A DNA stretch of 24,024 nucleotides from a virus (IMGVR_UViG_3300020365_000125:1-24024), one strand, 5' to 3'. Shown: positions 1 through 24,024, numbered from the stretch's first letter. The notes: generated by a model from the sequence alone, not told the origin. Translations and numbers: made by a program.

Positions 1-298
1 ATTTGTTAGTGCGTGGTTCGAGACGCCATGGCATACTATTCACTGGAAATAGATCTGTGTCTTTACATCGAGTATGCTTAACACCACGATCTTTTGTTTT
101 AGAACCACTTACCTTTCGTTTTGAGGAAGTCTTTGGTTGAGTGGCGAGTGATTTCAGGTTCTTGTCCAGACTTTGTTGCGTCTTGGATGATGATACTGTC
201 GCCTTTGACTTTCCACTCGATTTCTGTACCCGCTTGCCAGTGGAGTTCTTGGAGGATGTAGTGCGGGATCGTGATGTAGAGGTCTTTCGTGTCGTCAT
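1..298 (-). CDS. Highly basic Ser/Thr/Lys/Arg-rich hypothetical protein, 3'-partial (runs off window start); not in ORF track
   Basis: Manual translation from ATG at 298: MTTRKTSTSRSRTTSSKNSTGKRVQKSSGKSKATVSSSKTQQSLDKNLKSLATQPKTSSKRKVSGSKTKDRGVKHTRCKDTDLFPVNSMPWRLEPRTNK..., with no stop before position 1. The only other ATG lies near the window edge. The FP..MPWRLE segment resembles small conserved cyanophage proteins (recall). Confidence 0.6.
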   Translation of the reverse strand, partial: MTTRKTSTSRSRTTSSKNSTGKRVQKSSGKSKATVSSSKTQQSLDKNLKSLATQPKTSSKRKVSGSKTKDRGVKHTRCKDTDLFPVNSMPWRLEPRTNK

Positions 299-323
299 AC
301 TGTTCAATCTTGAATGTATCCAT
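99..323 (-). CDS. AbrB/MazE/SpoVT-like swapped-hairpin DNA-binding protein
   Basis: DLYITIPHYILQELHWQAGTEIEWKVKGDSIII fits the AbrB-type pattern (I.IP..I...L....G..I.W.......I.I). The start overlaps the end of the upstream gene by 20 nt. Confidence 0.65.
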   Translation of the reverse strand: MDTFKIEQYDDTKDLYITIPHYILQELHWQAGTEIEWKVKGDSIIIQDATKSGQEPEITRHSTKDFLKTKGKWF

Positions 324-999
324 TTTCAGTCAACCATTGACGAGTGAGTGGTGTCGGTTCATATTCTGTCCACATAGACCCACGAGCACACGCTTGAAGT
401 GCTTTCATGGTCATGTTCTCTGTTCGCCCTGCCCATTGTGCTTCCGCTTCCCATGGTACAGCAGACGCGGGGTAGGTGCGCTCTGCCATCACACGCCAGA
501 TCATAGGGACATCCTCCTCTGGTTTGATGATAGCAATCATGCTGTTCTCAATGGTGCCTGCCATACAGTCCTGAGCAGCGTGCCATCCCTCATGTCGCAT
601 CAATTGCATCAGTACATGTGGTTCATCCATGTATCTCTTGTTGAGATATACATTGTTACTCACAGTATGATACACACCACGATGCATGATGGGGAAGTAT
701 CGTTGATCAGCAAGGAATACTTTGATTCCCACCTGATTCATTGCCATCAGCATTTGATTGAATTCATCTGCCACATATGTGAACTCTTCAGTATTATCAT
801 ACTGAGATGAGATATCCAACAGTGAATGCACTTCATGCACATCGTTCTTACACTCTCTCACAAGCATACAACCCATTGCATCCATGCTATTGTATCCTTG
901 GGTGATTTTATCTTCACCTGCTTGGACACTCATACCATGTGCAGCGCCGAGTAATAGTCCTGCTGCGATTGTGTTAAACAGACTGATCCGATGTGCCAT
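304..999 (-). CDS. Putative exported zincin-like (HExxH) metallopeptidase-family protein
   Basis: 231-aa ORF with a signal-peptide-like N-terminus (MAHRISLFNTIAAGLLLGAAHGMSVQA). It has HEGWH within LMRHEGWHAAQDC, and downstream WEAEA is a candidate third-ligand Glu. Confidence 0.7.
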   Translation of the reverse strand: MAHRISLFNTIAAGLLLGAAHGMSVQAGEDKITQGYNSMDAMGCMLVRECKNDVHEVHSLLDISSQYDNTEEFTYVADEFNQMLMAMNQVGIKVFLADQRYFPIMHRGVYHTVSNNVYLNKRYMDEPHVLMQLMRHEGWHAAQDCMAGTIENSMIAIIKPEEDVPMIWRVMAERTYPASAVPWEAEAQWAGRTENMTMKALQACARGSMWTEYEPTPLTRQWLTENGYIQD

Positions 1000-1141
1000 A
1001 ATGATGTGTGTAATTCAAGAATGCATTGATGTTTGGTTTAACTCCGAGTGATAGACAGCACTCATACCATGAGTCAAAGTCTGTCTGGAGTGTCTTGCTC
1101 AGAGCAATTTGGACATAGTTTTTTGATGGTGTTGATGTCAT
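974..1141 (-). CDS. Small hypothetical protein (55 aa), not in ORF track
   Basis: Manual translation MTSTPSKNYVQIALSKTLQTDFDSWYECCLSLGVKPNINAFLNYTHHYGTSDQSV*; fills the gap in a co-oriented gene array. Confidence 0.6.
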   Translation of the reverse strand: MTSTPSKNYVQIALSKTLQTDFDSWYECCLSLGVKPNINAFLNYTHHYGTSDQSV

Positions 1142-1241
1142 GTAGGATCTTCTCTGCTAGTGCGTTGTCACCATCGGCATACGCTTTCATGTAATTAAGT
1201 ACAAGAGAGCGTAGTTGCTCCTTAAGTTGTGAGTTCGTCAT
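1074..1241 (-). CDS. Small hypothetical protein (55 aa), not in ORF track
   Basis: Manual translation MTNSQLKEQLRSLVLNYMKAYADGDNALAEKILHDINTIKKLCPNCSEQDTPDRL*; amphipathic helical pattern and a CPNC motif. Confidence 0.55.
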   Translation of the reverse strand: MTNSQLKEQLRSLVLNYMKAYADGDNALAEKILHDINTIKKLCPNCSEQDTPDRL

Positions 1242-1446
1242 ACAGTGCTACGAGTTCGTCACTATTGTAAAAGTGAGTTTGCTCGTTTATATAGTTGTTG
1301 GGATCCAACCACTCAAACCACTCATCAGCAAAACAGATTGCATCATCAGTGCGATTCTCAGCGATCAGATCACGAAAGCGTTCTACTACCCACTCACAGA
1401 TAGCATCACGGTTCTCAGAGATTTGCAGAGCGAATTCGTTGTTCAT
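1222..1446 (-). CDS. Acidic hypothetical phage protein
   Basis: 74-aa ORF; ATGA overlap with the stop of the upstream gene at 1443-1446. Confidence 0.75.
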   Translation of the reverse strand: MNNEFALQISENRDAICEWVVERFRDLIAENRTDDAICFADEWFEWLDPNNYINEQTHFYNSDELVALYDELTT

Positions 1447-1736
1447 TGCTTGTTAAGAGTCAGGGTGTTGTTCAGGTGGTCGTAAGAAACGAACTCTGTC
1501 CCTCGGGGCAGAGACTCAATGATAGCACGAGTGAACTCAAGAGTAAAGCGTGACTGGTATTTCCAGAACAAGCGATACAATTTGTTATGTGGTTCGACTA
1601 CGGTGCTCACTTGCACAGTATACTCACCACGAGTGTATCGTGTGGGGAATGGCATCAGCAGTTCTTTGACATGACTGACGACAATAGATGAGCAGCGTTG
1701 CTGCTTGTTAACTTGATTACCTAAACGAAGACTCAT
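1443..1736 (-). CDS. Hypothetical phage protein
   Basis: 97-aa ORF; ATGA overlaps at both ends (1733-1736 and 1443-1446). Confidence 0.75.
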   Translation of the reverse strand: MSLRLGNQVNKQQRCSSIVVSHVKELLMPFPTRYTRGEYTVQVSTVVEPHNKLYRLFWKYQSRFTLEFTRAIIESLPRGTEFVSYDHLNNTLTLNKQ

Positions 1737-1975
1737 TTGACAAATACCTCTTTGTTGAATTCTTTAGTAAGATCAACGGTTTCCTGTAGCAGATTACACA
1801 TGTGAATCACATATTCTGCTTCATCATCATCCATGCCACGCTCAAAGTCGAAGTCATAGGATGCATCCCAATCGGGTGTGCCATCCACCTTTACAGGTGC
1901 TCCGTACATATATCCATCTTCTTCCATCGCATAAGCGTTGCCATCAGCAACAATGTAGAAATCTGGGGCGTCCAT
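1733..1975 (-). CDS. Acidic hypothetical phage protein (start revised to ATG 1975, MDAPDFY...)
   Basis: The track start at 2032 is the TTG of a -35 box. The first ATG downstream of that promoter is at 1975. Confidence 0.75.
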   Translation of the reverse strand: MDAPDFYIVADGNAYAMEEDGYMYGAPVKVDGTPDWDASYDFDFERGMDDDEAEYVIHMCNLLQETVDLTKEFNKEVFVK

Positions 1976-2003
1976 GTTGGTAAGTGTGAGTTGGTATGAT
2001 AGT

Positions 2004-2032
2004 ATTTTATATAAGAAATGAGCGTTTGTCAA
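2004..2032 (-). promoter_or_regulatory. Sigma70-like early promoter
   Basis: TTGACA (2032-2027), 17-nt spacer, TAAAAT (2009-2004), upstream of ATG 1975. Confidence 0.8.
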
Positions 2033-2448
2033 CTCATGTAGAGATAACCTCCCGCCCAGTCAGCAACTTCAAGACAACGCTCGCGGGATTCTTCATCTAA
2101 AAGATTGTAGCGAACATATTTGGCAGGTCCTTTCCAACCTGCTGGTTTGTAGACATCACCAGTGTTACGATCGATGAATGCATGTACAGACTGAGAACCA
2201 CTAGAGTCCTTCATGATAAGTTTGTAATACTTACGACCTTTGTCAAGGTAGAAGTCATAATCAGCATTGCCTGCCTGGAGTTCATCAATCTGAGACTGGT
2301 GATAGTCAATGCTATACTGCTCAGTGGCATTAGCAAGAGAACGCTTCTGACTACGGATGCTATGCTCAATGAAGTCGGTAAGCAATGCCATGCACAGTTC
2401 GTGACTGTGTTGGGTAACTTGGGATTGTTGAGCAGTTGCGGTGGTCAT
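2029..2448 (-). CDS. Conserved phage hypothetical protein (GRKY...SVHAFID..TGDVYKPA.WK.PAK family); start revised to 2448
   Basis: Motif recalled from cyanophage early proteins. ATG 2448 (MTTATAQQ) follows the promoter at 2476-2533. Confidence 0.8.
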   Translation of the reverse strand: MTTATAQQSQVTQHSHELCMALLTDFIEHSIRSQKRSLANATEQYSIDYHQSQIDELQAGNADYDFYLDKGRKYYKLIMKDSSGSQSVHAFIDRNTGDVYKPAGWKGPAKYVRYNLLDEESRERCLEVADWAGGYLYMS

Positions 2449-2475
2449 GATGCGTTCTGTGTTGTGTATACAGTT

Positions 2476-2533
2476 ATTATAACCGTCAGTTGAGCAGTGC
2501 CAACACCTCAGGTGACAGTTCTTCAACTGACCA
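2476..2533 (-). promoter_or_regulatory. Early promoter with upstream 22-bp palindromic element (copy A)
   Basis: TGGTCAGTT-GAAG-AACTGTCAC (2533-2512), 30-nt gap containing TTGGCA, then TATAAT (2481-2476). Confidence 0.75.
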
Positions 2534-2635
2534 CTGGTCGCTCAGGTCAGGAATGTCATCATTCCAATCTACCTCAGCAGAATCAATCAGGTCAAGCAGT
2601 TTACGATCGAGCAGGACTTCAGCAACGGTAGTCAT
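2486..2635 (-). CDS. Small acidic hypothetical protein (49 aa), not in ORF track
   Basis: MTTVAEVLLDRKLLDLIDSAEVDWNDDIPDLSDQWSVEELSPEVLALLN*; ATGA overlap at 2632-2635. Its 3' half encodes the downstream promoter element. Confidence 0.6.
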   Translation of the reverse strand: MTTVAEVLLDRKLLDLIDSAEVDWNDDIPDLSDQWSVEELSPEVLALLN

Positions 2636-2841
2636 AGTAATTTGGAGAGACTAATGAACAGTAGAAAAGTGAGCATGATTACCACATCATACGATTTAGT
2701 GCGTATGAAATATGGTAAGGAGATAAGATCTCCGATAAAGTGGAGCGCGACTCCACCGATTACGCTAACATGTAACACAACAAAGTATGCTACAACTACA
2801 CACGCACTACCTGTAATGCGTAACTTAACATCATAATGCAT
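2632..2841 (-). CDS. Small membrane protein (2-3 hydrophobic segments)
   Basis: 69 aa and mostly hydrophobic (ACVVVAYFVVLHVSVIGGVALHFIG; VVIMLTFLLFISL). Confidence 0.7.
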   Translation of the reverse strand: MHYDVKLRITGSACVVVAYFVVLHVSVIGGVALHFIGDLISLPYFIRTKSYDVVIMLTFLLFISLSKLL

Positions 2842-2849
2842 TAGACTGG

Positions 2850-3011
2850 TCAGAAGACATTGGTGTAACGCTCATGCTGTACCTTGGTGATGCGACCTTC
2901 TGCCAGCATGTTGTCACACACATGGCAGAACACTTGGAACTTCTCAACCTTGGTCAGGGCAGTACCCTCACAGCACTCGCGGATGGTCTTGACGATGGTT
3001 GCCTTGAGCAT
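2850..3011 (-). CDS. Small hypothetical protein (53 aa), not in ORF track
   Basis: MLKATIVKTIRECCEGTALTKVEKFQVFCHVCDNMLAEGRITKVQHERYTNVF*; lies directly downstream of promoter copy B. Confidence 0.75.
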   Translation of the reverse strand: MLKATIVKTIRECCEGTALTKVEKFQVFCHVCDNMLAEGRITKVQHERYTNVF

Positions 3012-3034
3012 TGGTCCGTTGCGTTGATGTCTAT

Positions 3035-3092
3035 AGTATAAGGCAGATCAGGCGTTGCGGATCTCGCCTTTGACCACTACATCAGCTGGCAC
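3035..3092 (-). promoter_or_regulatory. Early promoter with upstream palindromic element (copy B) and internal stem-loop
   Basis: GTGCCAGCT-GATG-TAGTGGTCA (3092-3071), 30-nt gap forming an AGGC(G)AGATC...GATCTGCCT hairpin, then TATACT (3040-3035). Confidence 0.7.
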
Positions 3093-3284
3093 ACGAGAGA
3101 CAGTGTAGCGACGGATCTGCTGGGAGAATGGACGCCATGCATCAACAGTCTCATTAACGATGCGGTTGTGCTGACGATCCATGCCCTTAGCAGTGGTACA
3201 CTTGCGACACTTGCGGAAGTAGATGATGGGTTGCTGGGGAGCATCCACAGTGTCGATCTCGATCTTGTAGTGAGAGTAGGTCAT
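3048..3284 (-). CDS. Basic hypothetical phage protein (start revised to ATG 3284, MTYSHY...)
   Basis: ATG 3284 follows promoter copy C and a CAGGT SD-like sequence; the protein contains CRKC. Confidence 0.7.
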   Translation of the reverse strand: MTYSHYKIEIDTVDAPQQPIIYFRKCRKCTTAKGMDRQHNRIVNETVDAWRPFSQQIRRYTVSRVPADVVVKGEIRNA

Positions 3285-3308
3285 GACCTGTGTTTCGCTG
3301 ACTCCGTT

Positions 3309-3365
3309 AGTATAGGTCAGGTGGCGTCGTTGAGGGCATTGGATAGACACTCCTGTAAGTGTCCC
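3309..3365 (-). promoter_or_regulatory. Early promoter with upstream palindromic element (copy C)
   Basis: GGGACACTT-ACAG-GAGTGTCTA (3365-3344), 29-nt gap, then TATACT (3314-3309). Confidence 0.65.
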
Positions 3366-3505
3366 TCAAGTGCAACATCATTCACATTGTGACGAATTGC
3401 AAACGATTGACTGTCATGACGGTTCATAGACCACATACTGTCAATCAGGAACCTGATCTGATCTGTTGTCAGTTCAATCTGTAATGTGATAGGTTTGGGT
3501 CTCAC
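3317..3505 (-). CDS. Hypothetical protein (start GTG 3505 or ATG 3574)
   Basis: GTGA overlap with the upstream stop at 3502-3505 favours 3505; the ORF track gives 3574. Confidence 0.6.
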   Translation of the reverse strand: MRPKPITLQIELTTDQIRFLIDSMWSMNRHDSQSFAIRHNVNDVALEGHLQECLSNALNDAT

Positions 3506-3786
3506 AGGAAGTTCAATACCGAAGGTGTTAGCGGACGCAATATCGGCATCGCTGTATAAGGGGTCGTTTGACATAGTTCTATGGGGTCGTTACCCATGCG
3601 CTTTGAATTAATGGGAGGGTAGAATTGCTTACTTTTTTTGTGGTAGAATCCCCAGATTGTAGAAACAGGTTCACTGTTATAAACGTATTCGCGATGATGG
3701 CGCAACCATATAGCAATAACACCGCGTTTGTGTTCCTTAAATTCATAAGAGTATCCATCTGGTGGTTTATGAGTGAATTCTATCAT
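3502..3786 (-). CDS. Conserved cyanophage-type hypothetical protein (PPDGYSY...IWGFY...TPYTAM)
   Basis: ATGA overlap at 3783-3786 gives the start MIEFTH; motif recalled from cyanomyovirus early proteins. Confidence 0.75.
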   Translation of the reverse strand: MIEFTHKPPDGYSYEFKEHKRGVIAIWLRHHREYVYNSEPVSTIWGFYHKKSKQFYPPINSKRMGNDPIELCQTTPYTAMPILRPLTPSVLNFL

Positions 3787-4034
3787 GTCACACAAGCAAA
3801 TGGGGATCCGTGTACAGGTTGTGTGTGGAAATCAGTGACACTGTATCCATAACCATGAATACGAGAGTTTGCTTCCTCACGCAATGCCTTACGAGTGATT
3901 ATAGACCGAGAGACGGTCTCGATGCCATAATATTTGACATGCTTAACAATAAAGTTAGGAGACACATGTCCATCTGCTGTCATGCATGGATAGAAATCCA
4001 CTACCATGTGACCTTCAGGTGACTTGAGTTGCAT
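3783..4034 (-). CDS. Hypothetical phage protein
   Basis: 83-aa ORF directly downstream of promoter copy D. Confidence 0.75.
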   Translation of the reverse strand: MQLKSPEGHMVVDFYPCMTADGHVSPNFIVKHVKYYGIETVSRSIITRKALREEANSRIHGYGYSVTDFHTQPVHGSPFACVT

Positions 4035-4057
4035 GGGGTTGTTCGCTTGACTCTTCT

Positions 4058-4114
4058 AATATACATGAAAAAGGGGCGGTTGCCCACCCCTCGTGCCACT
4101 AAATCAACTGTCAC
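4058..4114 (-). promoter_or_regulatory. Early promoter with upstream palindromic element (copy D)
   Basis: GTGACAGTT-GATT-TAGTGGCAC (4114-4093), 29-nt gap, then TG-TATATT (extended -10; hexamer 4063-4058). Confidence 0.75.
4068..4091 (-). terminator. Rho-independent terminator embedded in promoter D
   Basis: AGGGGTGG-GCAA-CCGCCCCT followed by TTTT: a GC stem, GNRA loop and U tract, 12 nt after the stop at 4104. Confidence 0.7.
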
Positions 4115-4277
4115 TCATGCATGGGATGACATCGATAGGACCTGTTACCTTTGGATCACTCTCTAAATGTTTAATAAAATGACAAATATCATCTAGATTG
4201 TACATCACAACACGCTGCTGTGCTGAGTAACCTTTATTCTTCAGTTTTTTCCAAGTGATAGCGTACTTCTCGATCAA
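4104..4277 (-). CDS. Small hypothetical protein (57 aa, TTG start), not in ORF track
   Basis: MIEKYAITWKKLKNKGYSAQQRVVMYNLDDICHFIKHLESDPKVTGPIDVIPCMSDS*; TTGA overlap with the upstream stop and a GAGGT SD. Confidence 0.7.
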   Translation of the reverse strand: MIEKYAITWKKLKNKGYSAQQRVVMYNLDDICHFIKHLESDPKVTGPIDVIPCMSDS

Positions 4278-4609
4278 AGTGATGAACCTCGTTGAAACTT
4301 GGCGATGTCTGCCAGTGTGATTCTAGCAGCATAGTTATATGCTTTGCTACCATCTTCGCGCACTGTAACATCCTGCTGTGCTGCCAAGTGACCATATGCA
4401 TCATCAAATGCATCAACAGGACGGTGACCCTGCATCAAATCATATAGTTCTGATGCTTTATCAAGTTCCTTGCGATGATAATCGATGTTATCTTGAATTG
4501 ACATTAACATTTGCTCATAGCAAGCGCGAGCATCTAAACTATCATCATTGAGATAGTCATCAATACACTCTTGCATACGCTTATTCCTCTGTTGTGAGTA
4601 AGACTCCAT
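4274..4609 (-). CDS. Hypothetical phage protein (helical)
   Basis: 111-aa ORF; TAATG junction with the upstream gene and a GGAG SD. Confidence 0.75.
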   Translation of the reverse strand: MESYSQQRNKRMQECIDDYLNDDSLDARACYEQMLMSIQDNIDYHRKELDKASELYDLMQGHRPVDAFDDAYGHLAAQQDVTVREDGSKAYNYAARITLADIAKFQRGSSL

Positions 4610-4788
4610 TAATAAAACTCCTGGTTACGGCGTTGATCCAAGTATGCGAGGATTTCTCCGCGCCATTCGAGTAACTCATGATAACATAGTTGCTCATGTG
4701 CGTCCTCTCTCAGTTCATGGTCTGGTTTGAGAACACTCTCATAGAATAGATTGAATGCATCTCTGCGCTTTTGTGCTTTTGACTCCAT
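4609..4788 (-). CDS. Small hypothetical protein (59 aa), not in ORF track
   Basis: MESKAQKRRDAFNLFYESVLKPDHELREDAHEQLCYHELLEWRGEILAYLDQRRNQEFY*; TAGGT SD; fills the gap exactly. Confidence 0.75.
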   Translation of the reverse strand: MESKAQKRRDAFNLFYESVLKPDHELREDAHEQLCYHELLEWRGEILAYLDQRRNQEFY

Positions 4789-4809
4789 GAATTTTACCTA
4801 ATGTACACT

Positions 4810-5532
4810 CTATGTAAACGACAGAACACTGCTTTTAAGTCTATCATTTGATATCTTAATGTATTCATCATCGATTTCGTACCCAATCCAATCCCTATTC
4901 AGTGATTGTGCCACCAGTGCAGTGGTCCCTGATCCCAGAAAGGGGTCTAGGACCGTCTGTGATGCCTGTGTAGTGAGTTGGATACAGTTGCGTACCAACT
5001 GCTCAGGGAAGGGGGCAGGATGCTGCTTCTGACGATCGGGTGGAATCACCCATACTTCACCACGATACTGTGGATCAACTGCGTCACGAAACACTTTAGG
5101 TTTTTTCTTACAGAACCAGTAGATATGTTCTGTACATGGCACTAAGATATCATTGCGGATGTTTGGGGAGTTGCGTCTGTCCCAAATAATAAGTTGATAC
5201 AACTGTGCCGCACTGTGTGCAATGAAATCAGTGGGTAGATAGCATCTGTTTTTGTGTCTGCGTGGTTTATGGTTGAAAAATATACTACCATCATCTTTGA
5301 TGACGCGGTGACACTCATCCAATACTGCTACCATCCATGCCTGATACTCTTCCTCTGGCATATCATCACCATAGGAAGAGTAATCGATGTTGAACTTACC
5401 CCATATTTGATTACCACGCTTGACATTGCCAAGCAGACCTTTCTTATTGTATGGTGGTGATGTAATAATACAATCAATGGAGTTGTCATCCAACTCCTTC
5501 ATACCCTCAAGACAGTCTTTATTGATAATCAT
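4810..5532 (-). CDS. DNA amino-methyltransferase (N4-C/N6-A), beta class (N6_N4_Mtase family)
   Basis: Catalytic motif IV IITSPPY near the N-terminus, HPAPFP, SAM-binding motif I VLDPFLGSGTT near the C-terminus, and GYEID. Confidence 0.92.
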   Translation of the reverse strand: MIINKDCLEGMKELDDNSIDCIITSPPYNKKGLLGNVKRGNQIWGKFNIDYSSYGDDMPEEEYQAWMVAVLDECHRVIKDDGSIFFNHKPRRHKNRCYLPTDFIAHSAAQLYQLIIWDRRNSPNIRNDILVPCTEHIYWFCKKKPKVFRDAVDPQYRGEVWVIPPDRQKQHPAPFPEQLVRNCIQLTTQASQTVLDPFLGSGTTALVAQSLNRDWIGYEIDDEYIKISNDRLKSSVLSFT

Positions 5533-6194
5533 ACAAATAGATGGAGGTGAATGTGCCAGAGCACATTATAGCGGTTGCTCTTTGATTTCTTACCTTCACG
5601 CTGGAAGTGAAAGTATGATTTGCCTTGCTTATTCTTCAAGTGTATGCCACCAGAGAGGAATTTCCACTCAGCATCCTCGATTTTATCAATGATCTGCTGA
5701 TATGTCAATTCATATTCCTTATGCTCTAGGTGATTGTATACAACATGGGTGATGCCATCACCATTGCTGATGATAAGATCAACAACCTTACGCTTGTTAT
5801 TGTCAAGGAATTGTTTGAATGCTTCAATTTGGTCATCATCAATCTGTTTAATTGTACGGCGATCCTTGCCGTTGTAGTTATAGTCTGCATTACCACAGAA
5901 GTTACGGATAAATGCAGCAGCGAGACCATCGATACCGAGGGTCTCCATGAAATGTTTCTGTGTAGTAAGATGCACCTGAGTGGATGTACCACTAGCATTC
6001 TTAATACTCTTATTGTTTACACCATCAGTGCCATCAACTTTAGTACGAGAACCACCAATCTGTTTCAATCCATGTGCATCACAAATTGCTTTCTCCTTAG
6101 GACCAGAGTATTCTGCTCTAATCAGAGCACCCTTCTCTTCCTTGGTGAGCATGTCGTATGATGTTTTTGGTGGTGGAACTGTAAAATCTGGCAC
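5529..6194 (-). CDS. Putative PD-(D/E)xK Type II restriction-like endonuclease, MspI/HinP1I-like
   Basis: GGSRTKVD...SIKNAS...QVH resembles the recalled GGxxKTD...ISxK..S...VH core of MspI-type enzymes. NFCG, FLDNNKRKVVDLII, FHFQREG and NVLWHI parallel the HinP1I-type YFTG, WLEKNRVLVLTDIL, TIQRKGG and NMLQFKI. ATGA-coupled to the methyltransferase. Start GTG 6194 (or a later ATG). Confidence 0.65.
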   Translation of the reverse strand: MPDFTVPPPKTSYDMLTKEEKGALIRAEYSGPKEKAICDAHGLKQIGGSRTKVDGTDGVNNKSIKNASGTSTQVHLTTQKHFMETLGIDGLAAAFIRNFCGNADYNYNGKDRRTIKQIDDDQIEAFKQFLDNNKRKVVDLIISNGDGITHVVYNHLEHKEYELTYQQIIDKIEDAEWKFLSGGIHLKNKQGKSYFHFQREGKKSKSNRYNVLWHIHLHLFV

Positions 6195-6214
6195 GATAGT
6201 AAATTGGGTGTGTG

Positions 6215-6288
6215 GGGGGCGGTATCAGTTTGTCGATACACTTATCTATGTCTTGCCCCCTCTTGTTTGTGTCGGGTCTCCCCTCCAC
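6215..6288 (-). other. Structured 5' leader RNA upstream of the endonuclease
   Basis: Hairpin GUG-GA-GGG-GAGA-CCC-GA-CAC (6288-6269), then a GGGGGC/GCCCCC stem (6260-6255 with 6220-6215) enclosing a GUAUC/GAUAC hairpin. Confidence 0.55.
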
Positions 6289-6294
6289 TCATTT

Positions 6295-6351
6295 AATATA
6301 CTGCAGTTCATGCTCATGTGCAAGCATGGTGGACAGTTACTCAACTGGATC
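6295..6351 (-). promoter_or_regulatory. Early promoter with upstream palindromic element (copy E) driving the endonuclease-methylase pair
   Basis: GATCCAGTT-GAGT-AACTGTCCA (6351-6330); TTGCAC (6323-6318), 17-nt spacer, TATATT (6300-6295). Confidence 0.75.
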
Positions 6352-6522: not shown

Positions 6523-6979
6523 CTTCTCGTCGCCAGTGTTGTCTGATTCGTTTGTATTCTGCATTGTTTGCCACGATGTCGCGTACTTTCTTAAAGATCT
6601 GAGCACTCTTATTATAGTCACAGGTCCAGTGATCAGATTCCTGAGGGCGGACTTCACCTTTACTATCATACTTCTTTCCACTATGATGGTTAGCATATCT
6701 ACGAGCACGAGTAAATCCCATCTCTAGGAATTTACGACACATATCCATGCCTACAAAATCTTTAGCATCTCGATAGTCGAGATACATTGCATATATCTTA
6801 TTAGCAGACTTTACTGCAACATCAGGAGTTCGGAACCGCCAATGAGCACAAATGTCGTCTGTATAAGGCCGTACCAATAGAACTCCTTGTTCTCCCCGAC
6901 CAATACGATAAAGTTGGTGAGTCTCTGGATCTGTAAAGTCAAGTGACTTGTAGTCGAGTTCATAGCAAAACTCAAGCAT
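6419..6979 (-). CDS. DUF4385-family protein
   Basis: LYRIGRGEQGVLLVRPY...HWRFRTP...DFVGMDMCRKFLEMGFTRARRYANH matches the recalled DUF4385 signature. Confidence 0.85.
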   Translation of the reverse strand: MLEFCYELDYKSLDFTDPETHQLYRIGRGEQGVLLVRPYTDDICAHWRFRTPDVAVKSANKIYAMYLDYRDAKDFVGMDMCRKFLEMGFTRARRYANHHSGKKYDSKGEVRPQESDHWTCDYNKSAQIFKKVRDIVANNAEYKRIRQHWRREVECANEQRVAALATTSNIKRERYAPKRDKVSRKA

Positions 6980-7001
6980 AGTGGTGTGCTAGTTCAGGAC
7001 T

Positions 7002-7030: not shown

Positions 7031-7388
7031 CAGGGCGACCTGGGGGCACCAGACTAGTGTGAGGAATAGCACCAGTTGGGTTGATCACATATGCTTCAAT
7101 GAAATAGTCTTGATCATCCAACTGTGTTGATAGTGGGAACCACTCAATTGCTTTATCAATCGCAGCAGATTGCGTATCAAACTCATAGAATGTATAATCT
7201 TGTCTGAAGATCTCTTGAATTTCATCTTCATCAATGATTTCATCATAGTATGCCATGACTTCTTGCTGTTTGGTGGAGTCAAGAAAACACCATCTAGTGT
7301 TATCAATCACTAGCATGAACTTATTATTTGTTTTAGCGTAGAATGAGACCATCTCATAAGTACGCATTGCATTCATTGATACTAACAT
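7017..7388 (-). CDS. Acidic hypothetical protein at the end of the tail operon
   Basis: 123-aa ORF; TGATG junction with the upstream gene and a GGAG SD. Confidence 0.75.
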   Translation of the reverse strand: MLVSMNAMRTYEMVSFYAKTNNKFMLVIDNTRWCFLDSTKQQEVMAYYDEIIDEDEIQEIFRQDYTFYEFDTQSAAIDKAIEWFPLSTQLDDQDYFIEAYVINPTGAIPHTSLVPPGRPVDSE

Positions 7389-8317
7389 CAGATCTCTCCG
7401 TTTTCAATTCTAGTGAGTAGTGCCGACAAATACTCATCGGGATCTCTACCAGCTAGTTTAAGTTGTCTCCTATCTTCTTCTCTCTCAAGTGATCCAGCAC
7501 CTAATTCAGTGTCACTTCTAAATGGTCTGAGATATCTAGCACCAGGCACAGCATGAGTTGCATCATCAATGATTGCATTCATTGACATGTATACTGCCAT
7601 CTTCTTAGAGAATGAATTGACAGCATTAGATGTTAACATCCAGAAATGTGATTCAGAGAACAAATACTCTGTCTCTGTACCTTGATCACCAAATGCATCC
7701 TTGACTAGTGGCAATACATCAACAGACTTTCTATTCTCATACTCTACTGGTGTGATTGGAAACTTCACATCATATGGACTAGATGCTGCTGTGTTCTGTG
7801 TGAATAGTTCTCTTAGATATGTTCTATACTTCTTCCACAGTTCTTTCAGTTCAGGTGTGATTGGTGCATCCTCTACCTGTGTCCAGTCTGATTCAGTGAG
7901 TAGAAACTTTCTTACTAGTTTCAACTTATCCCAAGACAGTTTGCCCTGCTCCTTGAATTTAAGCAGCAATTGTCTCTCATATTCTGCTTCACCAACCTCT
8001 TTATAGTTGACAAACTTCTCAACTATACTATCATACAAATCTGTGACGATGGATTCATCAAGAGCACTAGGATCGAACTCATATGATGACCATCCTGATT
8101 CTTTTGTTTTAAAATTTCTACTATATTTGTATCTCTGAATGAGATGATAACCATCATCTCTGTATACAAACAACTCAAGTTTATCCTTTGGACTATCCCA
8201 CATAGGAACGAGTATTGGAGAAATCTCGGTTTCCCAATAATCATCGTTTATTAGTTTTGTTGAACCCTTGTATGTGATAGTTCTATCAAAGGCGTTCATT
8301 GATAAAAGAACAGTCAT
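7388..8317 (-). CDS. Tail fibre assembly chaperone-domain protein
   Basis: VRKFLLTESDWTQVEDAPI...WKKYRTYLREL matches the R..LL..SDWTQ..D.P....W..YRQ.LRD phage tail assembly chaperone motif; immediately downstream of the fibre gene. Confidence 0.8.
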   Translation of the reverse strand: MTVLLSMNAFDRTITYKGSTKLINDDYWETEISPILVPMWDSPKDKLELFVYRDDGYHLIQRYKYSRNFKTKESGWSSYEFDPSALDESIVTDLYDSIVEKFVNYKEVGEAEYERQLLLKFKEQGKLSWDKLKLVRKFLLTESDWTQVEDAPITPELKELWKKYRTYLRELFTQNTAASSPYDVKFPITPVEYENRKSVDVLPLVKDAFGDQGTETEYLFSESHFWMLTSNAVNSFSKKMAVYMSMNAIIDDATHAVPGARYLRPFRSDTELGAGSLEREEDRRQLKLAGRDPDEYLSALLTRIENGEI

Positions 8318-8340
8318 CTCAGAAATCCTGGTATGCTTAG

Positions 8341-8347
8341 TATTTAG
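8341..8347 (-). promoter_or_regulatory. Possible T4-type late promoter (CTAAATA)
   Basis: CTAAATA overlaps the fibre stop codon, 23 nt upstream of ATG 8317; variant of the T4 TATAAATA late box. Confidence 0.5.
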
Positions 8348-16157: not shown

Positions 16158-16158
16158 G

Positions 16159-17553
16159 TTAGAACGCTCTGATAATGTACATCATTGTGAGTGATGGTGT
16201 GTTAGGGTTCATAGTAATATTTAACGCAGTATCAACAGATAATGGAATAGTTGTTCCAGTTGAAACATTGTTCACCAACACATTTGTAGGAATAGATAGA
16301 CTTCCTCTTGACATCGTAACTTCCATTGCATCATGAGTGTGTGATCTAAGACCACTGTCCAACCATCTATCAAATGCATGGTTTAGTGTTGTAGCATATG
16401 TATTATTTACTGCTAAGTTAATTGGTTGTTTATCACCAGCAGCAACATCGTAAACAGGATCACTGACATAACTACTAGGCATCTGAGGTCCTCTGTGATA
16501 GTATGGAATGTCTGGTGATGGATAGAAATTTCTCTTACCATTGTATCTACCAGCAGGAGGGAATGTACCTGTTAAAGCATCTGCCTGTACATTTACAACT
16601 GCACTATAATCATCTTGATATCCAGTCTCAATTTTACTATTTGATGGAATGTTTCTAGATCCACTGTTAGGTGGTAAAGGCACCTTGACATTAGCAAGAC
16701 CGATTTGTACAGCACTATCTAAAAGTGGTGCTGAAATTCCACCATCATCGGGATCATACCATGTAATATCTCTCTCACCACTACCCTGAGTAAATGCGTG
16801 AGCAAAACTATCTGAACCTCTGTTACCAATTAGGTCAACACTAGATACTGGGTTTGCTGGTTTAGCAGTTGGAGGATCCCATTCCTGAACTGGTTGACCA
16901 GTTGCAATCACAGCACTAAATGGTGTATCATCATCAAGTGGTCTATGTGTATGTTGTGCAATATGATCAACACCTAGTTTTCTAGGTAAAACATATACTG
17001 TATCAAAATAGATCGGATCATCCATCGTAATACCAGTAATTCTACCAGCAAGGTTATCTGATTGCTCAACATCAAATGTGATATCAACAGATGCCTCTAC
17101 TAGTGTTTCTGGCAGATCGCCCTCAATACCATTTTTACTAATAAGATTTCCCAACTCTAGTAATGCATCAGTTGGCATTCTTGATGCCTCAATGTCAACC
17201 AAAGCAAGTTGATTTAAGTTTGGCAATGCAAATTGATCAACATGTTTAGCTGGGTCATGGTGCAACACACCCTGTGGTGGGTTGTATGGAAAATCATTAA
17301 CAATACCGAAGTTAACACCGAGAATCGATGTAGTGTCAGTTGCTTCGGGAAATGGACCATAGGTGTTACCTATGATCTTTGCTAGCAGTGGATAATCTGC
17401 AGCATTCAACAACTGTGCTTGTAAATCACAAACAATCCAACCTTGAGGAACATTATCAGCACGCTCCCCCACTCTAGATCCACCTCCCCATGGCATGATT
17501 GTGCCAATGGGGGCGATCTTAGTTGATTTTAGTCTACCGTAGTTTGCTGCCAT
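16159..17553 (-). CDS. Tail-collar domain fibre/baseplate protein (gp12/gp10-like architecture)
   Basis: PIGTIMPW.G...PQGWIVCD...YPLLAKIIGNTYG...FALPNL; two HTH (His-Thr-His) motifs; ends P.LTMMYIIRAF. Confidence 0.85.
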   Translation of the reverse strand: MAANYGRLKSTKIAPIGTIMPWGGGSRVGERADNVPQGWIVCDLQAQLLNAADYPLLAKIIGNTYGPFPEATDTTSILGVNFGIVNDFPYNPPQGVLHHDPAKHVDQFALPNLNQLALVDIEASRMPTDALLELGNLISKNGIEGDLPETLVEASVDITFDVEQSDNLAGRITGITMDDPIYFDTVYVLPRKLGVDHIAQHTHRPLDDDTPFSAVIATGQPVQEWDPPTAKPANPVSSVDLIGNRGSDSFAHAFTQGSGERDITWYDPDDGGISAPLLDSAVQIGLANVKVPLPPNSGSRNIPSNSKIETGYQDDYSAVVNVQADALTGTFPPAGRYNGKRNFYPSPDIPYYHRGPQMPSSYVSDPVYDVAAGDKQPINLAVNNTYATTLNHAFDRWLDSGLRSHTHDAMEVTMSRGSLSIPTNVLVNNVSTGTTIPLSVDTALNITMNPNTPSLTMMYIIRAF

Positions 17554-17556
17554 TTA

Positions 17557-20500
17557 TCAGATCTCCTTGAGCCACCATCCAGTTACAGAGGAAGAAACAA
17601 TTGTTCCTTGAGAATCCGATGCACCTAGGTAGATCAAGGTGAACGCTGCATTTGGAGTCTGTACGACCAGTTCACCAGATGCGTATGGTGTGGATCCGCC
17701 CAGTCCAATTGTTGTTCCTTGAGCATCACCCTGAACTCTTACACTAGTTCCGAGTGCTCTGATAATCAGAGATGTGTTGTAGGTTAGGTTACCACCCACT
17801 TCAATAAATTCGATTCTATCACCAGTTTGTGCATTTTCAGGTAGGAATAGAACCAGATCGTCGTCAGCAGATACATTGACAAAGTATGTAAGGTTGACAT
17901 CTAGATTCAATTCAGCAGCATCAGATCCACTGGAAACATAACGAGCATGTCTACCACCAGATGTGGTATAGAAGTTGCTATATCCGAATGCATCAATCGA
18001 ATTGTCTTGGTTAATTACAAACTTATCAGCACCATTGACACCTAGGTTCTCAACAGTTAACTTAGGAGTCTTAGGTGGAGATTCTGCTGCAGAACCTACA
18101 ACTGTCCAGCTGTTACCAACTAAACCATCACCAAATACATCGACTTTAAACGATGGGAGACACGAGTCTGCATTTGTGACGACATTTTCTGGGCAAGATG
18201 TTGGATAGAGAGTAATGTTACCTCTACCAACAACACCTGCATCGAAGAAAATAGATCCAGAGTGATCTGCGTGACCGTCATCATTCTCAACAACCAAGAT
18301 GTTAGACTTCTGTACAGAGTCCTTGATCGTAATGTTACCACCATTCATGGTGAAGTCCTTGTTCAGAACTAGATCACCATTTCTATGAGTGATGTTACCA
18401 TTCTGGAGTGTCTCATCCATGATGCTGGTATGGACCTTACCAAGCAGTCCACCATTGACTAGATAGAGATTATCATTGGTTCCATCAGTAATTCTAATCC
18501 ACTGAGTGTAATCAAGTTTTGTCTGTACAATATGACCACGGTTGATGATCATAGAGACATATGGTGTTGCAACACCAGCCACATCACGAGATCTCTCCTG
18601 AATATCAATCATCTGAGAAGACTCAGGATGCTTGAGAATTCTAACTACAGTTGTTGTAGTTGCAGGATAATCAGTTAGAGCTTGTGCTGTAGTTCCTTCT
18701 TGTGCTGGTAGAGCACGAATTACCTTTCCAGGTACATCAACAGCAGCGATCTTCATGATCTCCCACTGTACATCATCAGAACCAGAAGGTACACCCTTAT
18801 CAGAAACTTGACTTGTCTTACCAACGATGATTAGATCGTCGATTGCAAATCTACCAGATCCAGTTCCAAGATCAGCAACAGTTAGGTATACAGAACCTGC
18901 TACAGATCCAGTTGCAGCTTGTGCAGTTAGAGTAGTGATTGGACCACCAGCGTTGATGGTAGCAGGATCAACCCAATAAGAGAAGATATTATAATCATCC
19001 TCAGATCCAGAGTATGCTGCTACAGTATCATCAGGATCCTGAGCAGATGGAGTGAGTCTACTAATATCAATTCGTCTGAACTGATTACCAACCTCAAGAG
19101 AAGCACTACAGGTGTCAAAGTACAGAGTATTCTGATCACTACCATTAGTGAGAATAAACTCCTCGTTTCTTACTGCCTTGAATACTACACTATTAATAGT
19201 TGCAGTTAGAATCAATGGTTTCGTTAGTTTAACGAAATCAGTACCAATCTCAGTAATTCTGGTGTTGCCCTGCATTTCAGCAGCGATTCCACCAACATTG
19301 AAGGAGATTACATCACCGATCGATACCTTAGCAATGTCAGCAGCACTAATATTAGTGATCATGAATGTTGCTGTAGTACCAGTCACAGGTGTGATAGTAC
19401 CAGTGAATGTACCTTTCTGAGTGGTTCCACAACCACCCTTGAGATTAAATCCACCTTCAAGTGTGACATCACCACCGATGTAAGTATCACCAGTTACAGT
19501 GTCTACCTCGAATACCTTAGTTTCTGTAGGATCACCACAGTCAGTAATTGTGAACTTCTGAACTAGTTGATCAAGAGATGTCTCAACCTTGATAACTTCA
19601 CCCTGATCAAAGATGCCATCGCTATCTGTATCTTCACGATCAACAATTACATAGTCACCTTCATTCAGAGCACCACCAAATTCTGCAAGATATACATTAT
19701 CCTTAGGACCAGTGTTATCTAGATATTGCTCAGTCCAAGTGGAATCAAACTGAACATTAACTTTATAGATTGCAGTTGTATCAGGATGGTTCTCTAACTG
19801 TCCAGTGAATGTACCAAATGGCTTACGCTTTACCTTAATATAGTAAGGAGCAGCGTTGATTCTGGTTAGTTCAACAATCTGTACAAATTCAGGATATCCA
19901 GTAGATCCTACGACAGCACTGTCGATAAGCAGATAGTTGTTTTCCTGATAGTATGGTACGCCATTGACTTCTGGTAAGTTCTTCAATGGTAGATAGAACT
20001 CATCACCAGATAGAGCAGGTAGGAACTGAGGTTCAACTACTGGTGTGCCACCAATACTAGTAACTTCTTGCTGATATGCAGATCCACCCCAATCACCAGA
20101 ACCAGCAGTATCAATCTGGTTGTATCCGTCATCTGTTACCGCTAGGCGATTTACATTGAGGATATCAATGTTCTTGTTAAACTGAGATTGTCCAAGAACT
20201 CCAGTCTGGTGCTCAACGATTGCAGATCCAGATTGTCCTCTCAAACCTTCAAATGCGAAGGATGCAAGTCCACCACAAATCTTGACATCGCCGTTAAACT
20301 CAGCAGATGCAATAACCTCTAGTTGGTTATTGATAGTGGTCTTACCACCCTGACCTGCAATGTTAACTTCAGATGCATTTAGACCGAAGTTAATAGTAGA
20401 TGCAGAACCAGAGTCAGAGAAGAAGCTAACTGTACCAGCAGTGGTAGATAGTCTGACAGTCTCAGTAATACCGCGTCTGGTTCCTAACTGGAAGTCACCA

Positions 20501-23500
20501 TTGACCTTGAAGGACTTGGTTTTAACTTCAGTGTAGGATAGAGACTCGTTATTGTTGTATGCACCACCAATCTCAACCTTGGAGATATTAGTTGCAGGAG
20601 TGTCAGGTGTAGTACCAATGAAGATGTTGCTGTGTAGAGACTTCGTACCGAAGCTCATAAACTGATCAGCAGTTGTTTCGTTAGCAACTTCTACATTCTG
20701 TACCCAACCAGCAACCTTGAGACCATTGACTCCACCAACGCTTTGTTGTACAGAACCAGTGAATCCACTGTTCATTAAGAAGTTGAACTGTCCAGAAGTA
20801 ATATCTGTTCTGATTTCAGCAGTGTTAGAACCACCACCACCATGAACTTCAATGTCCTCTTGGAATCTAGCATCACCAGTGAATCTGGACTCACCATCAA
20901 CAACTAGTGCTCTATCAAGTTCAGCTCTGGTTACATTGATACCAACACGACCGTTATTGGTTGTTGCAACACGAAGTGTTGCTTCACTTTCAGGTGCATT
21001 CCAGATGCCACCAACCAACAATGCCTCATCAACAGGAGTCTTGGTGCGATCTGCATATGCAGAATGTGCTCCAAAGTCATCAGTGATGAAACCACTGATC
21101 CAAGCATTACCCATAACATCTAGGTTTGCCTGTGGTTCAGTATTAGCATCTACCCAGTTATCAATGTAAGAATCGCGATCTGCTCTTACAACAGTGTTGA
21201 CACCTAACTTATACTCACCGATAGAGTCAGTCTTAGTTCTTAGTGCTTCAGCACCAAGTACACCCCACTCTTTCCAGTTGGAGTTAGAGAACTCAATTCT
21301 AATGTTTGGATTTGCTGCAACTTCAGAGGACCAGAGTCGTGGGTTGTCACCCTGTACACTGTTCTTGACATTGTTAATAGCAAATTGACATGTATTAGAA
21401 CTACCGCTAAATCCATTAGCGATTACCTGCCAAGTTCCATCGAGTTGACTATCAGATGCACCAGCAATTCTGATTTCAGAACCAGTTGTGATACCAAGTA
21501 GATCGTTAGTTAGAGATCCGTCCCACTCAATTGTAACCACATTGGTGTTGTTGAATGTCAATGAATATACATTCAGGTTACCAATGATGGTAAAGAAGTT
21601 TGCATAGATCCAACCAAGAGATCCTGTAGATCCAACAAATCCACCCTTGAGTAGCATGTCTCCTGTGAGTGGAGCACCAGCATTACCATATTGTACGATC
21701 TGAGAAGCACCAAATGTGCCAGACTGATCAGGTGTGATGTTAGATGGAGTTGTGCCAACAATATGAGTTTGAATCTTATATGGTTGTCCATCCCTGCGAC
21801 TATTGAACTGGAAAATTGCCGAGGAAATTTTATTGCGACTAATGACAATATCACCTTCGGTTTCCTGATTTCTGAGGAATGCAGATCTATCGAGAGATCC
21901 ATCATCGATAGCAGGATCAACGAACGAGGAGATTCTGAGAGCAGACTCTCTTACACTACCAAGAACATTGATTAGGACAGGAGAGTTGAATGTGCTACGA
22001 CGATCCTGTGCATCACCACCGTTAACAGTGATGTATTCGTTGAATGTTACAGGAGTGTCAAATGTCGTAACTAGGTTGCCGAGATCCTCATCATCATCAG
22101 CGGAGTCAACCAACTGTGCAGATTCTAGGAACTCTTCTTCACCAGTGATAGCGTCAATCTTACGGTTACCAATGTATAGGTCACCGTTAGAGTTCAGACC
22201 AGTGTAGAATACTAGACCACCATCTTGCTTCTTAGATTGTGCAAAGAAGTCTTGAGTTGGTGTGAGTACAACTTCCTGACGAGCAGGTAGACCAGTTGAA
22301 TAGTTACCAGGACCGAAACCTAGGTATTCAAAGGTGTGGTTACCAGCACGAGCGATAGATGGTCTACGGAGTTCAACATAGTAACGCTGATCACTCATGA
22401 CTGTGCTGTCACCAGCAATAGGAATCTTACGATCCTCAGATCCAGATGCAGCATTACCTGCCTGTGCAATCAGTCTGTTATCAACAGTAGAGCTGACCTG
22501 AGTATAAGAATTACCCTCAAGTGCAGGTGTTGCTAGGAGGTCAATCATTGCCTCCTTAGTCATCGATCCCTTGAAGTCGTTAACTCTTACAAGACCGTGT
22601 ACATAGTTGTCTGCAGCAGAGTATGTTGCAGGAGGATCAACCAATGTAGCATCCAGTTTCTGATACCAGAGAGGATCGTTCTTGTAGTTGAGTGGATATA
22701 GTTTGCTGATAGGCTGAGAGAACTTGAAGTTCCTGAAGTTGCCTAGGTTACCAGCACCCTGTGGGAATGGTGAGATGTTACCACGAACAGCAGTTAGATA
22801 GTAGATACCATCTTGCTGACCGAAGATACGGCGTTGTACCTCTTCAACATCAAAGATGTAGAATGTGTCATCAATAACACCAACATCAGTTACAGAGTCG
22901 ATGTAGTATTGAATACCAGCATCGTCTTCGATGATATCACCAGGAGTTACAGTATAAACTGGTGCTCCGTTCTGTCTGTAGTAATACTCAGGATAGTTCT
23001 TACGGATCAGTTCCTTAATAACAAGAGACTTACCAAAGTCAGCGTCTGCAAGTAGATCGGAGAATGCAGCACCTTGACCAATTCTGATATTCTCAATAGT
23101 GTCGAATGTGAGAGCACCTACAACACCCTTAAGGATCATGTACCAGTCAGATGTTCCAGGAACATTTGTGATAGCATGTAGATAACCATAACCAGAAGAG
23201 TTACCGAACCACTCAACACGGTTAACTGCATCAGAAGACTGAGTTCTATCTGCAACAAAGTTGCCACCCTGAGGTGCAGTAACTTTAATTGTAGTGAATG
23301 TCTCATTGATCAGACCAGTGTTAGTGATCTCAGGGTTGATGACAGTCAGTTCTAAGTAGTCATTGCCAGATGCTTGCTCAGTAAAGTATCTACCAGACTG
23401 AATAGTCATGGCAACATAGTTCTGAGTCTCAATCTTCTTAGCATACTGTACAGTGCCAATCAGATCCTTTCTGAATGGATCATACTCAACTGCTGGATCT

Positions 23501-24024
23501 AGATTTAGATTGTCAAATTCAGATTGAGTAACACCAATAACTTCATTCTGCTGAACTGGGTTGAAGAATCTCGCCTTGGTTACATTACCAGATACAGGCT
23601 TCAGTACCAGTTTCTGTGGTACGAGTTTTCTTGTTTCGTCAGTTCTAGTCTTAATTGTGAAACCATTGATAGGATCACGAGCAGACTGCAGATAAGATGG
23701 AATGACATAACGCAAGCGATAGATTCTATCTGTTGCTTCACGCTCATCCTTGACACGCTCAAAGAAGGAGTCGTTAGTCTTATCAATACCATCAGCATAT
23801 TCTCTGATACGACCGATGATCTGATCAGTGCCTAGATCGTTCTCAACTTGTAGATACCACTTACCATAGATTACTGGAGCAGTTCCAGGGTTGGTGTAAG
23901 CGGGATCAAACTTCATAGGCGACTCACGCTTGTTAGCGAAGACGCTGAAGTCATAGGTTCCAGGTTGGAATGTGATTTCATTTACACCACCCTCAGCATC
24001 TGCCTTAGTCTTATAGATGGTGAA
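17557..24024 (-). CDS. Giant virion structural/tail protein, 5'-partial (frame is open to the window end)
   Basis: The frame continues without a stop upstream of 23916 (FTIYKTKADAEGG...KRESP-MKFD). It is beta/Gly-rich. The C-terminal YFVNV...LP...TGDRI...GG...L.V......LIY...GW module is of the T4 gp9/gp34-like type. Confidence 0.85.
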   Translation of the reverse strand, partial: FTIYKTKADAEGGVNEITFQPGTYDFSVFANKRESPMKFDPAYTNPGTAPVIYGKWYLQVENDLGTDQIIGRIREYADGIDKTNDSFFERVKDEREATDRIYRLRYVIPSYLQSARDPINGFTIKTRTDETRKLVPQKLVLKPVSGNVTKARFFNPVQQNEVIGVTQSEFDNLNLDPAVEYDPFRKDLIGTVQYAKKIETQNYVAMTIQSGRYFTEQASGNDYLELTVINPEITNTGLINETFTTIKVTAPQGGNFVADRTQSSDAVNRVEWFGNSSGYGYLHAITNVPGTSDWYMILKGVVGALTFDTIENIRIGQGAAFSDLLADADFGKSLVIKELIRKNYPEYYYRQNGAPVYTVTPGDIIEDDAGIQYYIDSVTDVGVIDDTFYIFDVEEVQRRIFGQQDGIYYLTAVRGNISPFPQGAGNLGNFRNFKFSQPISKLYPLNYKNDPLWYQKLDATLVDPPATYSAADNYVHGLVRVNDFKGSMTKEAMIDLLATPALEGNSYTQVSSTVDNRLIAQAGNAASGSEDRKIPIAGDSTVMSDQRYYVELRRPSIARAGNHTFEYLGFGPGNYSTGLPARQEVVLTPTQDFFAQSKKQDGGLVFYTGLNSNGDLYIGNRKIDAITGEEEFLESAQLVDSADDDEDLGNLVTTFDTPVTFNEYITVNGGDAQDRRSTFNSPVLINVLGSVRESALRISSFVDPAIDDGSLDRSAFLRNQETEGDIVISRNKISSAIFQFNSRRDGQPYKIQTHIVGTTPSNITPDQSGTFGASQIVQYGNAGAPLTGDMLLKGGFVGSTGSLGWIYANFFTIIGNLNVYSLTFNNTNVVTIEWDGSLTNDLLGITTGSEIRIAGASDSQLDGTWQVIANGFSGSSNTCQFAINNVKNSVQGDNPRLWSSEVAANPNIRIEFSNSNWKEWGVLGAEALRTKTDSIGEYKLGVNTVVRADRDSYIDNWVDANTEPQANLDVMGNAWISGFITDDFGAHSAYADRTKTPVDEALLVGGIWNAPESEATLRVATTNNGRVGINVTRAELDRALVVDGESRFTGDARFQEDIEVHGGGGSNTAEIRTDITSGQFNFLMNSGFTGSVQQSVGGVNGLKVAGWVQNVEVANETTADQFMSFGTKSLHSNIFIGTTPDTPATNISKVEIGGAYNNNESLSYTEVKTKSFKVNGDFQLGTRRGITETVRLSTTAGTVSFFSDSGSASTINFGLNASEVNIAGQGGKTTINNQLEVIASAEFNGDVKICGGLASFAFEGLRGQSGSAIVEHQTGVLGQSQFNKNIDILNVNRLAVTDDGYNQIDTAGSGDWGGSAYQQEVTSIGGTPVVEPQFLPALSGDEFYLPLKNLPEVNGVPYYQENNYLLIDSAVVGSTGYPEFVQIVELTRINAAPYYIKVKRKPFGTFTGQLENHPDTTAIYKVNVQFDSTWTEQYLDNTGPKDNVYLAEFGGALNEGDYVIVDREDTDSDGIFDQGEVIKVETSLDQLVQKFTITDCGDPTETKVFEVDTVTGDTYIGGDVTLEGGFNLKGGCGTTQKGTFTGTITPVTGTTATFMITNISAADIAKVSIGDVISFNVGGIAAEMQGNTRITEIGTDFVKLTKPLILTATINSVVFKAVRNEEFILTNGSDQNTLYFDTCSASLEVGNQFRRIDISRLTPSAQDPDDTVAAYSGSEDDYNIFSYWVDPATINAGGPITTLTAQAATGSVAGSVYLTVADLGTGSGRFAIDDLIIVGKTSQVSDKGVPSGSDDVQWEIMKIAAVDVPGKVIRALPAQEGTTAQALTDYPATTTTVVRILKHPESSQMIDIQERSRDVAGVATPYVSMIINRGHIVQTKLDYTQWIRITDGTNDNLYLVNGGLLGKVHTSIMDETLQNGNITHRNGDLVLNKDFTMNGGNITIKDSVQKSNILVVENDDGHADHSGSIFFDAGVVGRGNITLYPTSCPENVVTNADSCLPSFKVDVFGDGLVGNSWTVVGSAAESPPKTPKLTVENLGVNGADKFVINQDNSIDAFGYSNFYTTSGGRHARYVSSGSDAAELNLDVNLTYFVNVSADDDLVLFLPENAQTGDRIEFIEVGGNLTYNTSLIIRALGTSVRVQGDAQGTTIGLGGSTPYASGELVVQTPNAAFTLIYLGASDSQGTIVSSSVTGWWLKEI

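Follow-up and report, generated by a model that had tools for sequence, protein, structure and literature searches.

What emptied this stretch of phage DNA of CCGG, and did the restriction-like nuclease that it encodes have a part in it? The window is the whole of a 24,024-base contig, and the original prediction had tied the missing MspI site to an MspI/HinP1I-like enzyme encoded at 5529..6194. The contig is a fragment of a T4-like cyanomyovirus (Kyanoviridae-like, a Synechococcus myophage), and searches with the nuclease and tail-gene proteins returned matches exclusively to marine cyanophage or marine virus records. All of its called genes are encoded on the minus strand. A tail block (7388..23916, minus strand), rich in Gly, Thr and Ser codons, holds a tail assembly chaperone and four tail-fibre or structural genes, recognised by Pfam and PHROG matches, and a cluster of small cyanophage genes with no assigned function occupies 99..4788 (minus strand). 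The nuclease gene and a methylase gene (4810..5532), both on the minus strand, sit between these two blocks. A 2,150 aa structural protein (8344-14796) carries a phosphatidylethanolamine-binding (PBP) domain at residues 254-372 (E 7.6e-07), and a small MazE/AbrB-like gene (PF04014, E 1.3e-05) lies at the contig end (99-323).

The tetramer count confirmed that CCGG is absent from the window. Indeed, it occurs 0 times in 24,024 bases where a Markov model predicts 12.9, and 500 synonymous-codon shuffles of the called genes gave 20.7 ± 4.2 occurrences with a minimum of 9, none of the 500 reaching zero. The junction NCC-GGN, said to be missing from the protein-coding sequence, is never used either, even in the Gly/Thr/Ser-rich coding of the tail block: NCC accounts for 162 of the 1,895 NCN codons overall and for 0 of the 205 that precede a GGN codon. 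The under-representation of CCGG exceeds what composition and codon usage lead one to expect, which is the classical mark of restriction-site avoidance, and the strong selection proposed against this word is borne out by the shuffles. GCGC (13 sites, 478 and 944 among them) is present and GATC (171 sites) abundant, as had been read by eye. GGCC is very rare, as also claimed (3 against 13.6 in the shuffles, none of the 500 as low as 3), although its sites number three and not two, the one at 12608..12611 having been overlooked beside those at 6867..6870 and 15337..15340. The gaps in AGCT (21 observed, 96.2 in the codon shuffles), AGCC (4 and 31.4) and GGCT (2 and 43.0) are equally strong, though unremarked in the reading by eye, so that GGCC is merely one member of a depleted RGCY set. 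ACGT is reduced to three sites (3683..3686, and those starting at 9509 and 12708) against 58.8 in the shuffles. Nineteen palindromic hexamers that are near zero in the relatives are all at 0 in the window, where each is expected just a few times per 24 kb.

The RGCY depletion is uneven along the genome, near-total around the variable small-gene region and weaker elsewhere. A single RGCY site (3084) lies within 1-6866 of the window (6.9 kb), and S-RIM12 and S-CAM22 have at about 25-45 kb (L071-L072, L080-L081, L111-L112) several 5 kb bins devoid of RGCY, with the cassette described below present or absent.

HinP1I (G^CGC) and MspI (C^CGG) are monomeric PD-(D/E)xK type IIP endonucleases, and the kinship of the window nuclease to them was rightly recognised. 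The protein, which likely starts at the ATG at 6152 (207 aa), is predicted to adopt the two-sheet monomeric restriction-enzyme fold of the HinP1I/MspI type, closer to HinP1I, and its family profile matches HinP1I. A Pfam search gave no match for the window nuclease; among 41 distant homologues, one matches R-HINP1I above the cut-off (E 7.6e-06) and one MspI below it (E 0.0018). Residues E34, D54 and K65 are invariant across 34 diverse sequences and, judging from the PD-(D/E)xK pattern, are presumably catalytic. The nuclease thus shares with HinP1I and MspI the fold, the conserved acidic and lysine residues and an adjacent methylase gene, but it is only about 15% identical to them, is phage-borne and has an N4 methylase as its partner. 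When the register of the profile alignment is read by eye, the positions of K96 and K223 of HinP1I are taken by L76 and E200, and Q93 is conserved (Q73). In HinP1I the first G is read by K96, according to the residue roles given in PMC7026639, and the replacement of this residue together with that of K223 fits a site other than that of HinP1I.

The adjacent gene, which the original prediction left out of account, encodes a beta-class methyltransferase of the N4-cytosine type, with SPPY at residues 25-28, ahead of the FxGxG motif (DPFLGSG, ending at 202), and a match to PF01555 (N6_N4_Mtase domain, E 5.1e-45). Its best PDB match is 8s9m, a DNA cytosine-N4 methyltransferase (E 1.3e-60). This structure we take to be the rotifer N4CMT, in line with PMC10406627 and PMC8885841. 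The methylase gene overlaps the nuclease stop by 4 bases (ATGA), and 47 of the 52 nuclease loci contain a homologue of it. The S-RIM12 isolates show the pair as a single insertion of about 1.4 kb, at a locus found in three states: five isolates have the cassette, six close isolates have nothing, and others have another annotated restriction endonuclease. As the two genes are adjacent and move together, the pair 5529-6194 and 4810-5532 is predicted to be a mobile type II restriction-modification cassette.

The loss of CCGG is spread over the family and is independent of this cassette. The nuclease is present in 3 of the 17 named phage records searched, and the 13 named isolates without it (eight whole genomes, five partial) contain 2 CCGG in 1,947,083 bases, as against 0 in 542,917 bases for the three that have it, P-TIM68 being excluded from the sum because its expectation is about 1. 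Pooled over 13 isolates, 1 CCGG is observed for 1,139 expected. In S-RIM12, an isolate about 99% identical to a carrier, and lacking at this locus only the 1.4 kb cassette, has 0 CCGG for 112 expected, the carrier 0 for 110. Conversely, some carriers have plentiful CCGG (observed/expected 36/36 in G005, 15/11 in L034, 21/15 in L049). We also compared 24 metagenomic carrier loci with 85 loci that have no cassette in the sampled stretch, with the cassette genes masked; these were what remained of 212 after removal of near-duplicates, of loci shorter than 7 kb and of two loci on carrier contigs. Among the 136 tetramer classes, CCGG ranked only 129 for depletion that tracks the cassette. Of the dereplicated loci with at least 4 expected sites, 6 of the 18 carriers and 52 of the 78 non-carriers have no CCGG. 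The proposed link between the nuclease and the CCGG loss, for which this comparison of cyanophages with and without the gene had been suggested, therefore does not stand, and the nuclease was rejected as an MspI isoschizomer causing the loss. Its pairing with an N4-cytosine methylase gene means, moreover, that the loss of sites would not be needed for protection.

The purge is not universal among T4-like cyanophages, and it switches by lineage in an all-or-none manner: observed/expected CCGG is 87/111 in G064, 184/204 in G065 and 89/90 in G066, and G067 stands at 13/152. Nor is CCGG the only word concerned. The RGCY words are at 0.16-0.31 of expectation pooled over 13 isolates, many strictly palindromic hexamers are near zero, and most of 10 complete or near-complete family records have none or almost none of the 19 hexamers mentioned above. 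In G067 (L456-L464), 8 of the 11 distinct surviving CCGG overlap RGCY at their outer C, whereas control words are preceded by RG just 3-9% of the time; GGCC is normal in this genome and RGCY near normal. This pattern fits a cutter that is blocked by a mark at the outer C of CCGG. In a motif scan of G067 no C5 methylase or Dam-like gene passed, and no marking enzyme was found. Other gaps are specific to single lineages: CTCAG (1/123 in S-CAM3, L150-L154, and 2/135 in S-CAM1, L155-L159), CTAG (39/238 in S-CAM3 and 11/239 in S-RIM32, L170-L174) and GACTC (17/189 in S-WAM2, L140-L149). The complete T4-like cyanophage record G065 (L446-L455), in which CCGG is normal, has 0 TCGA for 273 expected, and a restriction-enzyme-like gene unique to it lies at L450:5076-5735.

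What, then, does the cassette recognise? Our results point to ACGT, which is probably the target of both the nuclease and the methylase. With the cassette masked, ACGT ranks 1 of 136 tetramer classes for depletion in the flanks of carriers, its median observed/expected ratio being 0.33 in carriers and 0.77 in non-carriers (one-sided p 2.4e-06), and the ratio is 0.25 or less in 11 of 24 carrier loci against 4 of 85 non-carrier loci. Individual carriers are strongly depleted (39/346 in Sf-CH1b, 13/85 in G002, 4/46 in G004, 6/45 in G005), among them the distant low-GC carrier G008 (14/103), in which AGCT is normal. The assignment rests on this flank depletion together with independent evidence from the rotifer enzyme: N4CMT is described as preferring (a/c)CG(t/c/a), with symmetric ACGT preferred most and a 3' G (ACGG) disfavoured (PMC10406627). 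[quoted passage not shown] The phage methylase resembles N4CMT in its SPPY motif and has it as its best solved relative (8s9m; PMC10406627, PMC8885841), but it is a 240 aa protein that aligns to the catalytic domain only, is paired with a nuclease, and owes its candidate site to genome comparisons.

Several observations run counter to ACGT. The ratio is above 0.25 at 13 of the 24 carrier loci, S-RIM12 is equally depleted with and without the cassette (0.46 and 0.47), and S-CAM22 stands at 0.53. The S-RIM12 and S-CAM22 values require, if ACGT is the site, either a recent gain of the cassette or full protection by the methylase. Furthermore, 4 of the 85 non-carrier loci have zero ACGT, several other words are also missing in G007 and G008, and inside the cassette genes ACGT is no rarer than AGCT and RGCY. 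The compared loci are related by descent and hence not phylogenetically independent, and the bacterial enzymes that PMC8885841 puts closest to N4CMT recognise TCGA and CCSGG. Zero ACGT is seen in L222, L224, L227, L241 and L258, fragments with no cassette, and an ACGT cutter may lie elsewhere in their genomes.

If the cassette is not responsible for the loss of CCGG, which enzyme is? That the agent is a nuclease seems to us very probable. The near-total absence of CCGG, with CCAGG normal in the CCGG-free phages and no C5 methylase in any of the 18 named phage records, fits cleavage better than mutational decay. Whether this nuclease belongs to the cell rather than to a phage is the weakest step of our reasoning, and we lean to the cell only tentatively, at somewhat less than even confidence. 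Host DNA retains CCGG (112 observed for 129 expected in WH7803, about 5 per kb). HpaII-like genes were found in 0 of 301 host-family genomes, and MspI-like genes in 0 of 301, in a search run without a ringing control. Among 39 genomes from the genus of WH7803, 1 has a C5 methylase, 5 have a beta-class N4/N6 methylase and 2 have a D12 methylase. In all these searches each species was represented by one genome, and genes on islands may be missed. Avoidance of a host restriction system, the fallback of the original prediction, is the better reading, although no such system was found in these hosts. In the genus of G023 (39 marine Synechococcus genomes) the three methylase families are rare, whereas a Dam-type methylase is found in most of the complete myophage genomes examined.

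The ecology of these phages, as described in PMC6708340, gives some reason to favour the cell. Nearly all strains resistant to generalist T4-like cyanophages still let them attach, the resistance being met inside the cell, whereas specialists mostly fail to attach; of the strains studied, about a quarter have known intracellular defences. Cell-encoded systems are favoured on these grounds, generalists gaining entry to far more strains than specialists do. The same combination of generalist attachment and intracellular resistance could explain why podoviruses keep CCGG: of the 41 podovirus loci retained from 80, only one is low in the word. This single CCGG-free podovirus locus (L524, 0/15) has a GC content of 0.38. 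Podoviruses are partly depleted in the shared hexamers (GCGCGC 5/35, GTGCAC 22/72, GCATGC 16/63), which hints at a shared cellular pressure. It counts against a cellular cutter, as does the retention of CCGG by podoviruses and by host DNA, that Syn5 (CCGG 186/203) and Syn19 (0/147) are both listed with one host strain.

We therefore favour, as a whole, a rare cell-encoded CCGG cutter acting on the family together with an ACGT cassette, a composite that we believe and doubt in about equal measure. The window is devoid of CCGG because most T4-like Synechococcus myophages are, whether the nuclease is present or absent, and the loss would be maintained by a CCGG-cutting, methylation-sensitive restriction enzyme, contained in a minority of the cells that these phages of broad host range invade. 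The methylase would place N4-methylcytosine in ACGT on the phage DNA, the HinP1I-fold nuclease would attack ACGT left unmarked in the DNA of hosts or competitors, and imperfect self-marking would slowly strip ACGT from long-term carriers.

This composite has to be weighed against four other readings. The idea that the nuclease at 5529-6194 cuts CCGG and so caused its absence here is refuted as a cause and retains only a very slight probability: besides the equal loss in genomes that lack the gene, the fold is closer to HinP1I, and the characterised relative of the partner methylase disfavours a 3' G (PMC10406627). Just as slight is the probability that codon usage, low CpG or methylation-driven mutation removed CCGG with no cutting at all. 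The window does have a low CpG ratio (0.46) and CCG and CGG codons are rare in it, but the codon-preserving shuffles refute codon bias, CGCG is normal in the window (14 observed, 14 expected), a C5 methylase is absent from the CCGG-free named phages and almost absent from hosts, and over the pooled isolates 1 CCGG is left for 1,139 expected. An unrecognised nuclease common to these phages, degrading host DNA at CCGG and related palindromes while the phage is safe by lacking the sites, is quite improbable without being as remote. Such an enzyme would suit the degradation of host DNA reported in PMC6708340 whenever phage DNA replicates, the abundance of CCGG in the hosts, and the all-or-none behaviour of lineages, G065 having lost TCGA instead. 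However, the nine complete CCGG-free genomes share no nuclease-size gene that is absent from G064 and G065, and the shared SegE-like GIY-YIG gene hardly differs between loci that have CCGG and loci that do not. A comparison of 59 shared single-copy families finds only 21 columns, among 5,422 invariant ones, that tell the CCGG-free genomes apart from those two, and these columns do not cluster in any nuclease.

The strongest competitor, though still unlikely in our view, is pressure from other phages, in which swapped restriction-like genes cut co-infecting relatives, or cassettes are carried for a time and leave their lineages purged of the palindromes. The three states of the S-RIM12 locus are what such an exchange would produce, and putative nuclease-methylase pairs are found also in S-WAM2, Syn1, S-RSM4 and Syn19. 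A putative nuclease restricted, among all loci compared, to S-WAM2 and Syn1 matches their loss of GTAC (43/577 and 0/574, respectively), and the small number of DNA methylases in hosts and the retention of CCGG by podoviruses agree with a phage-borne source. The putative nuclease of S-WAM2 (L142:6220-7319), which is followed by a short methylase, and that of Syn1 (L167:15661-16272) are unlike the Syn19 protein annotated R.RsaI. Against this pressure, no candidate CCGG cutter was found in the 9 complete CCGG-free genomes, and podoviruses in co-infected cells would be cut too. A restriction war waged by the phages, where a pool of swappable cassettes, the HinP1I-fold ACGT cutter included, would cut unmethylated host DNA and rivals and would have shaped the sequence of the family, is equally unlikely.

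The preferred reading, a rare cellular CCGG cutter with an ACGT cassette, joins a known class of phenomena. Site avoidance in lytic dsDNA phages is already known (Rusinov et al. 2018, PMC6286503), with complete or near-complete site elimination in about one tenth of viral genomes for non-temperate dsDNA phages, and the CCGG gap is an extreme case of it; the ACGT assignment is new. As in the cases described there, a short palindrome is wholly lost in a lytic dsDNA phage, but here no matching host system was found and about 20 palindromes are lost family-wide; the main text of that study makes no mention of Synechococcus or cyanophages. Our literature search, of incomplete coverage, found no paper on a CCGG purge in this myophage family or on the site of the cassette. 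A cytosine modification is reported for Synechococcus phage S-B43, in which CmoA-CmoX-CmoY hypermodification in GC motifs blocked HhaI in vitro (PMC12783734). This suggests that restriction may matter for Synechococcus phages, but the CmoA-CmoX-CmoY genes were not seen among the annotated genes of the window.

In conclusion, ACGT becomes, through the cassette, a testable candidate site for the cyanophage methylases listed in 2022, beside the first animal N4-cytosine methylase, as "of unknown target specificity" (PMC8885841), and the agreement of this site with the measured preference of N4CMT suggests that the specificity came with the gene. If this assignment is true, an ACGT cutter is added to the HinP1I/MspI fold. 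On the other side, the near-loss of about 20 palindromes by phages whose hosts seemingly have no matching systems offers a way, through sequence, into the unexplained resistance that marine Synechococcus shows inside the cell (PMC6708340).
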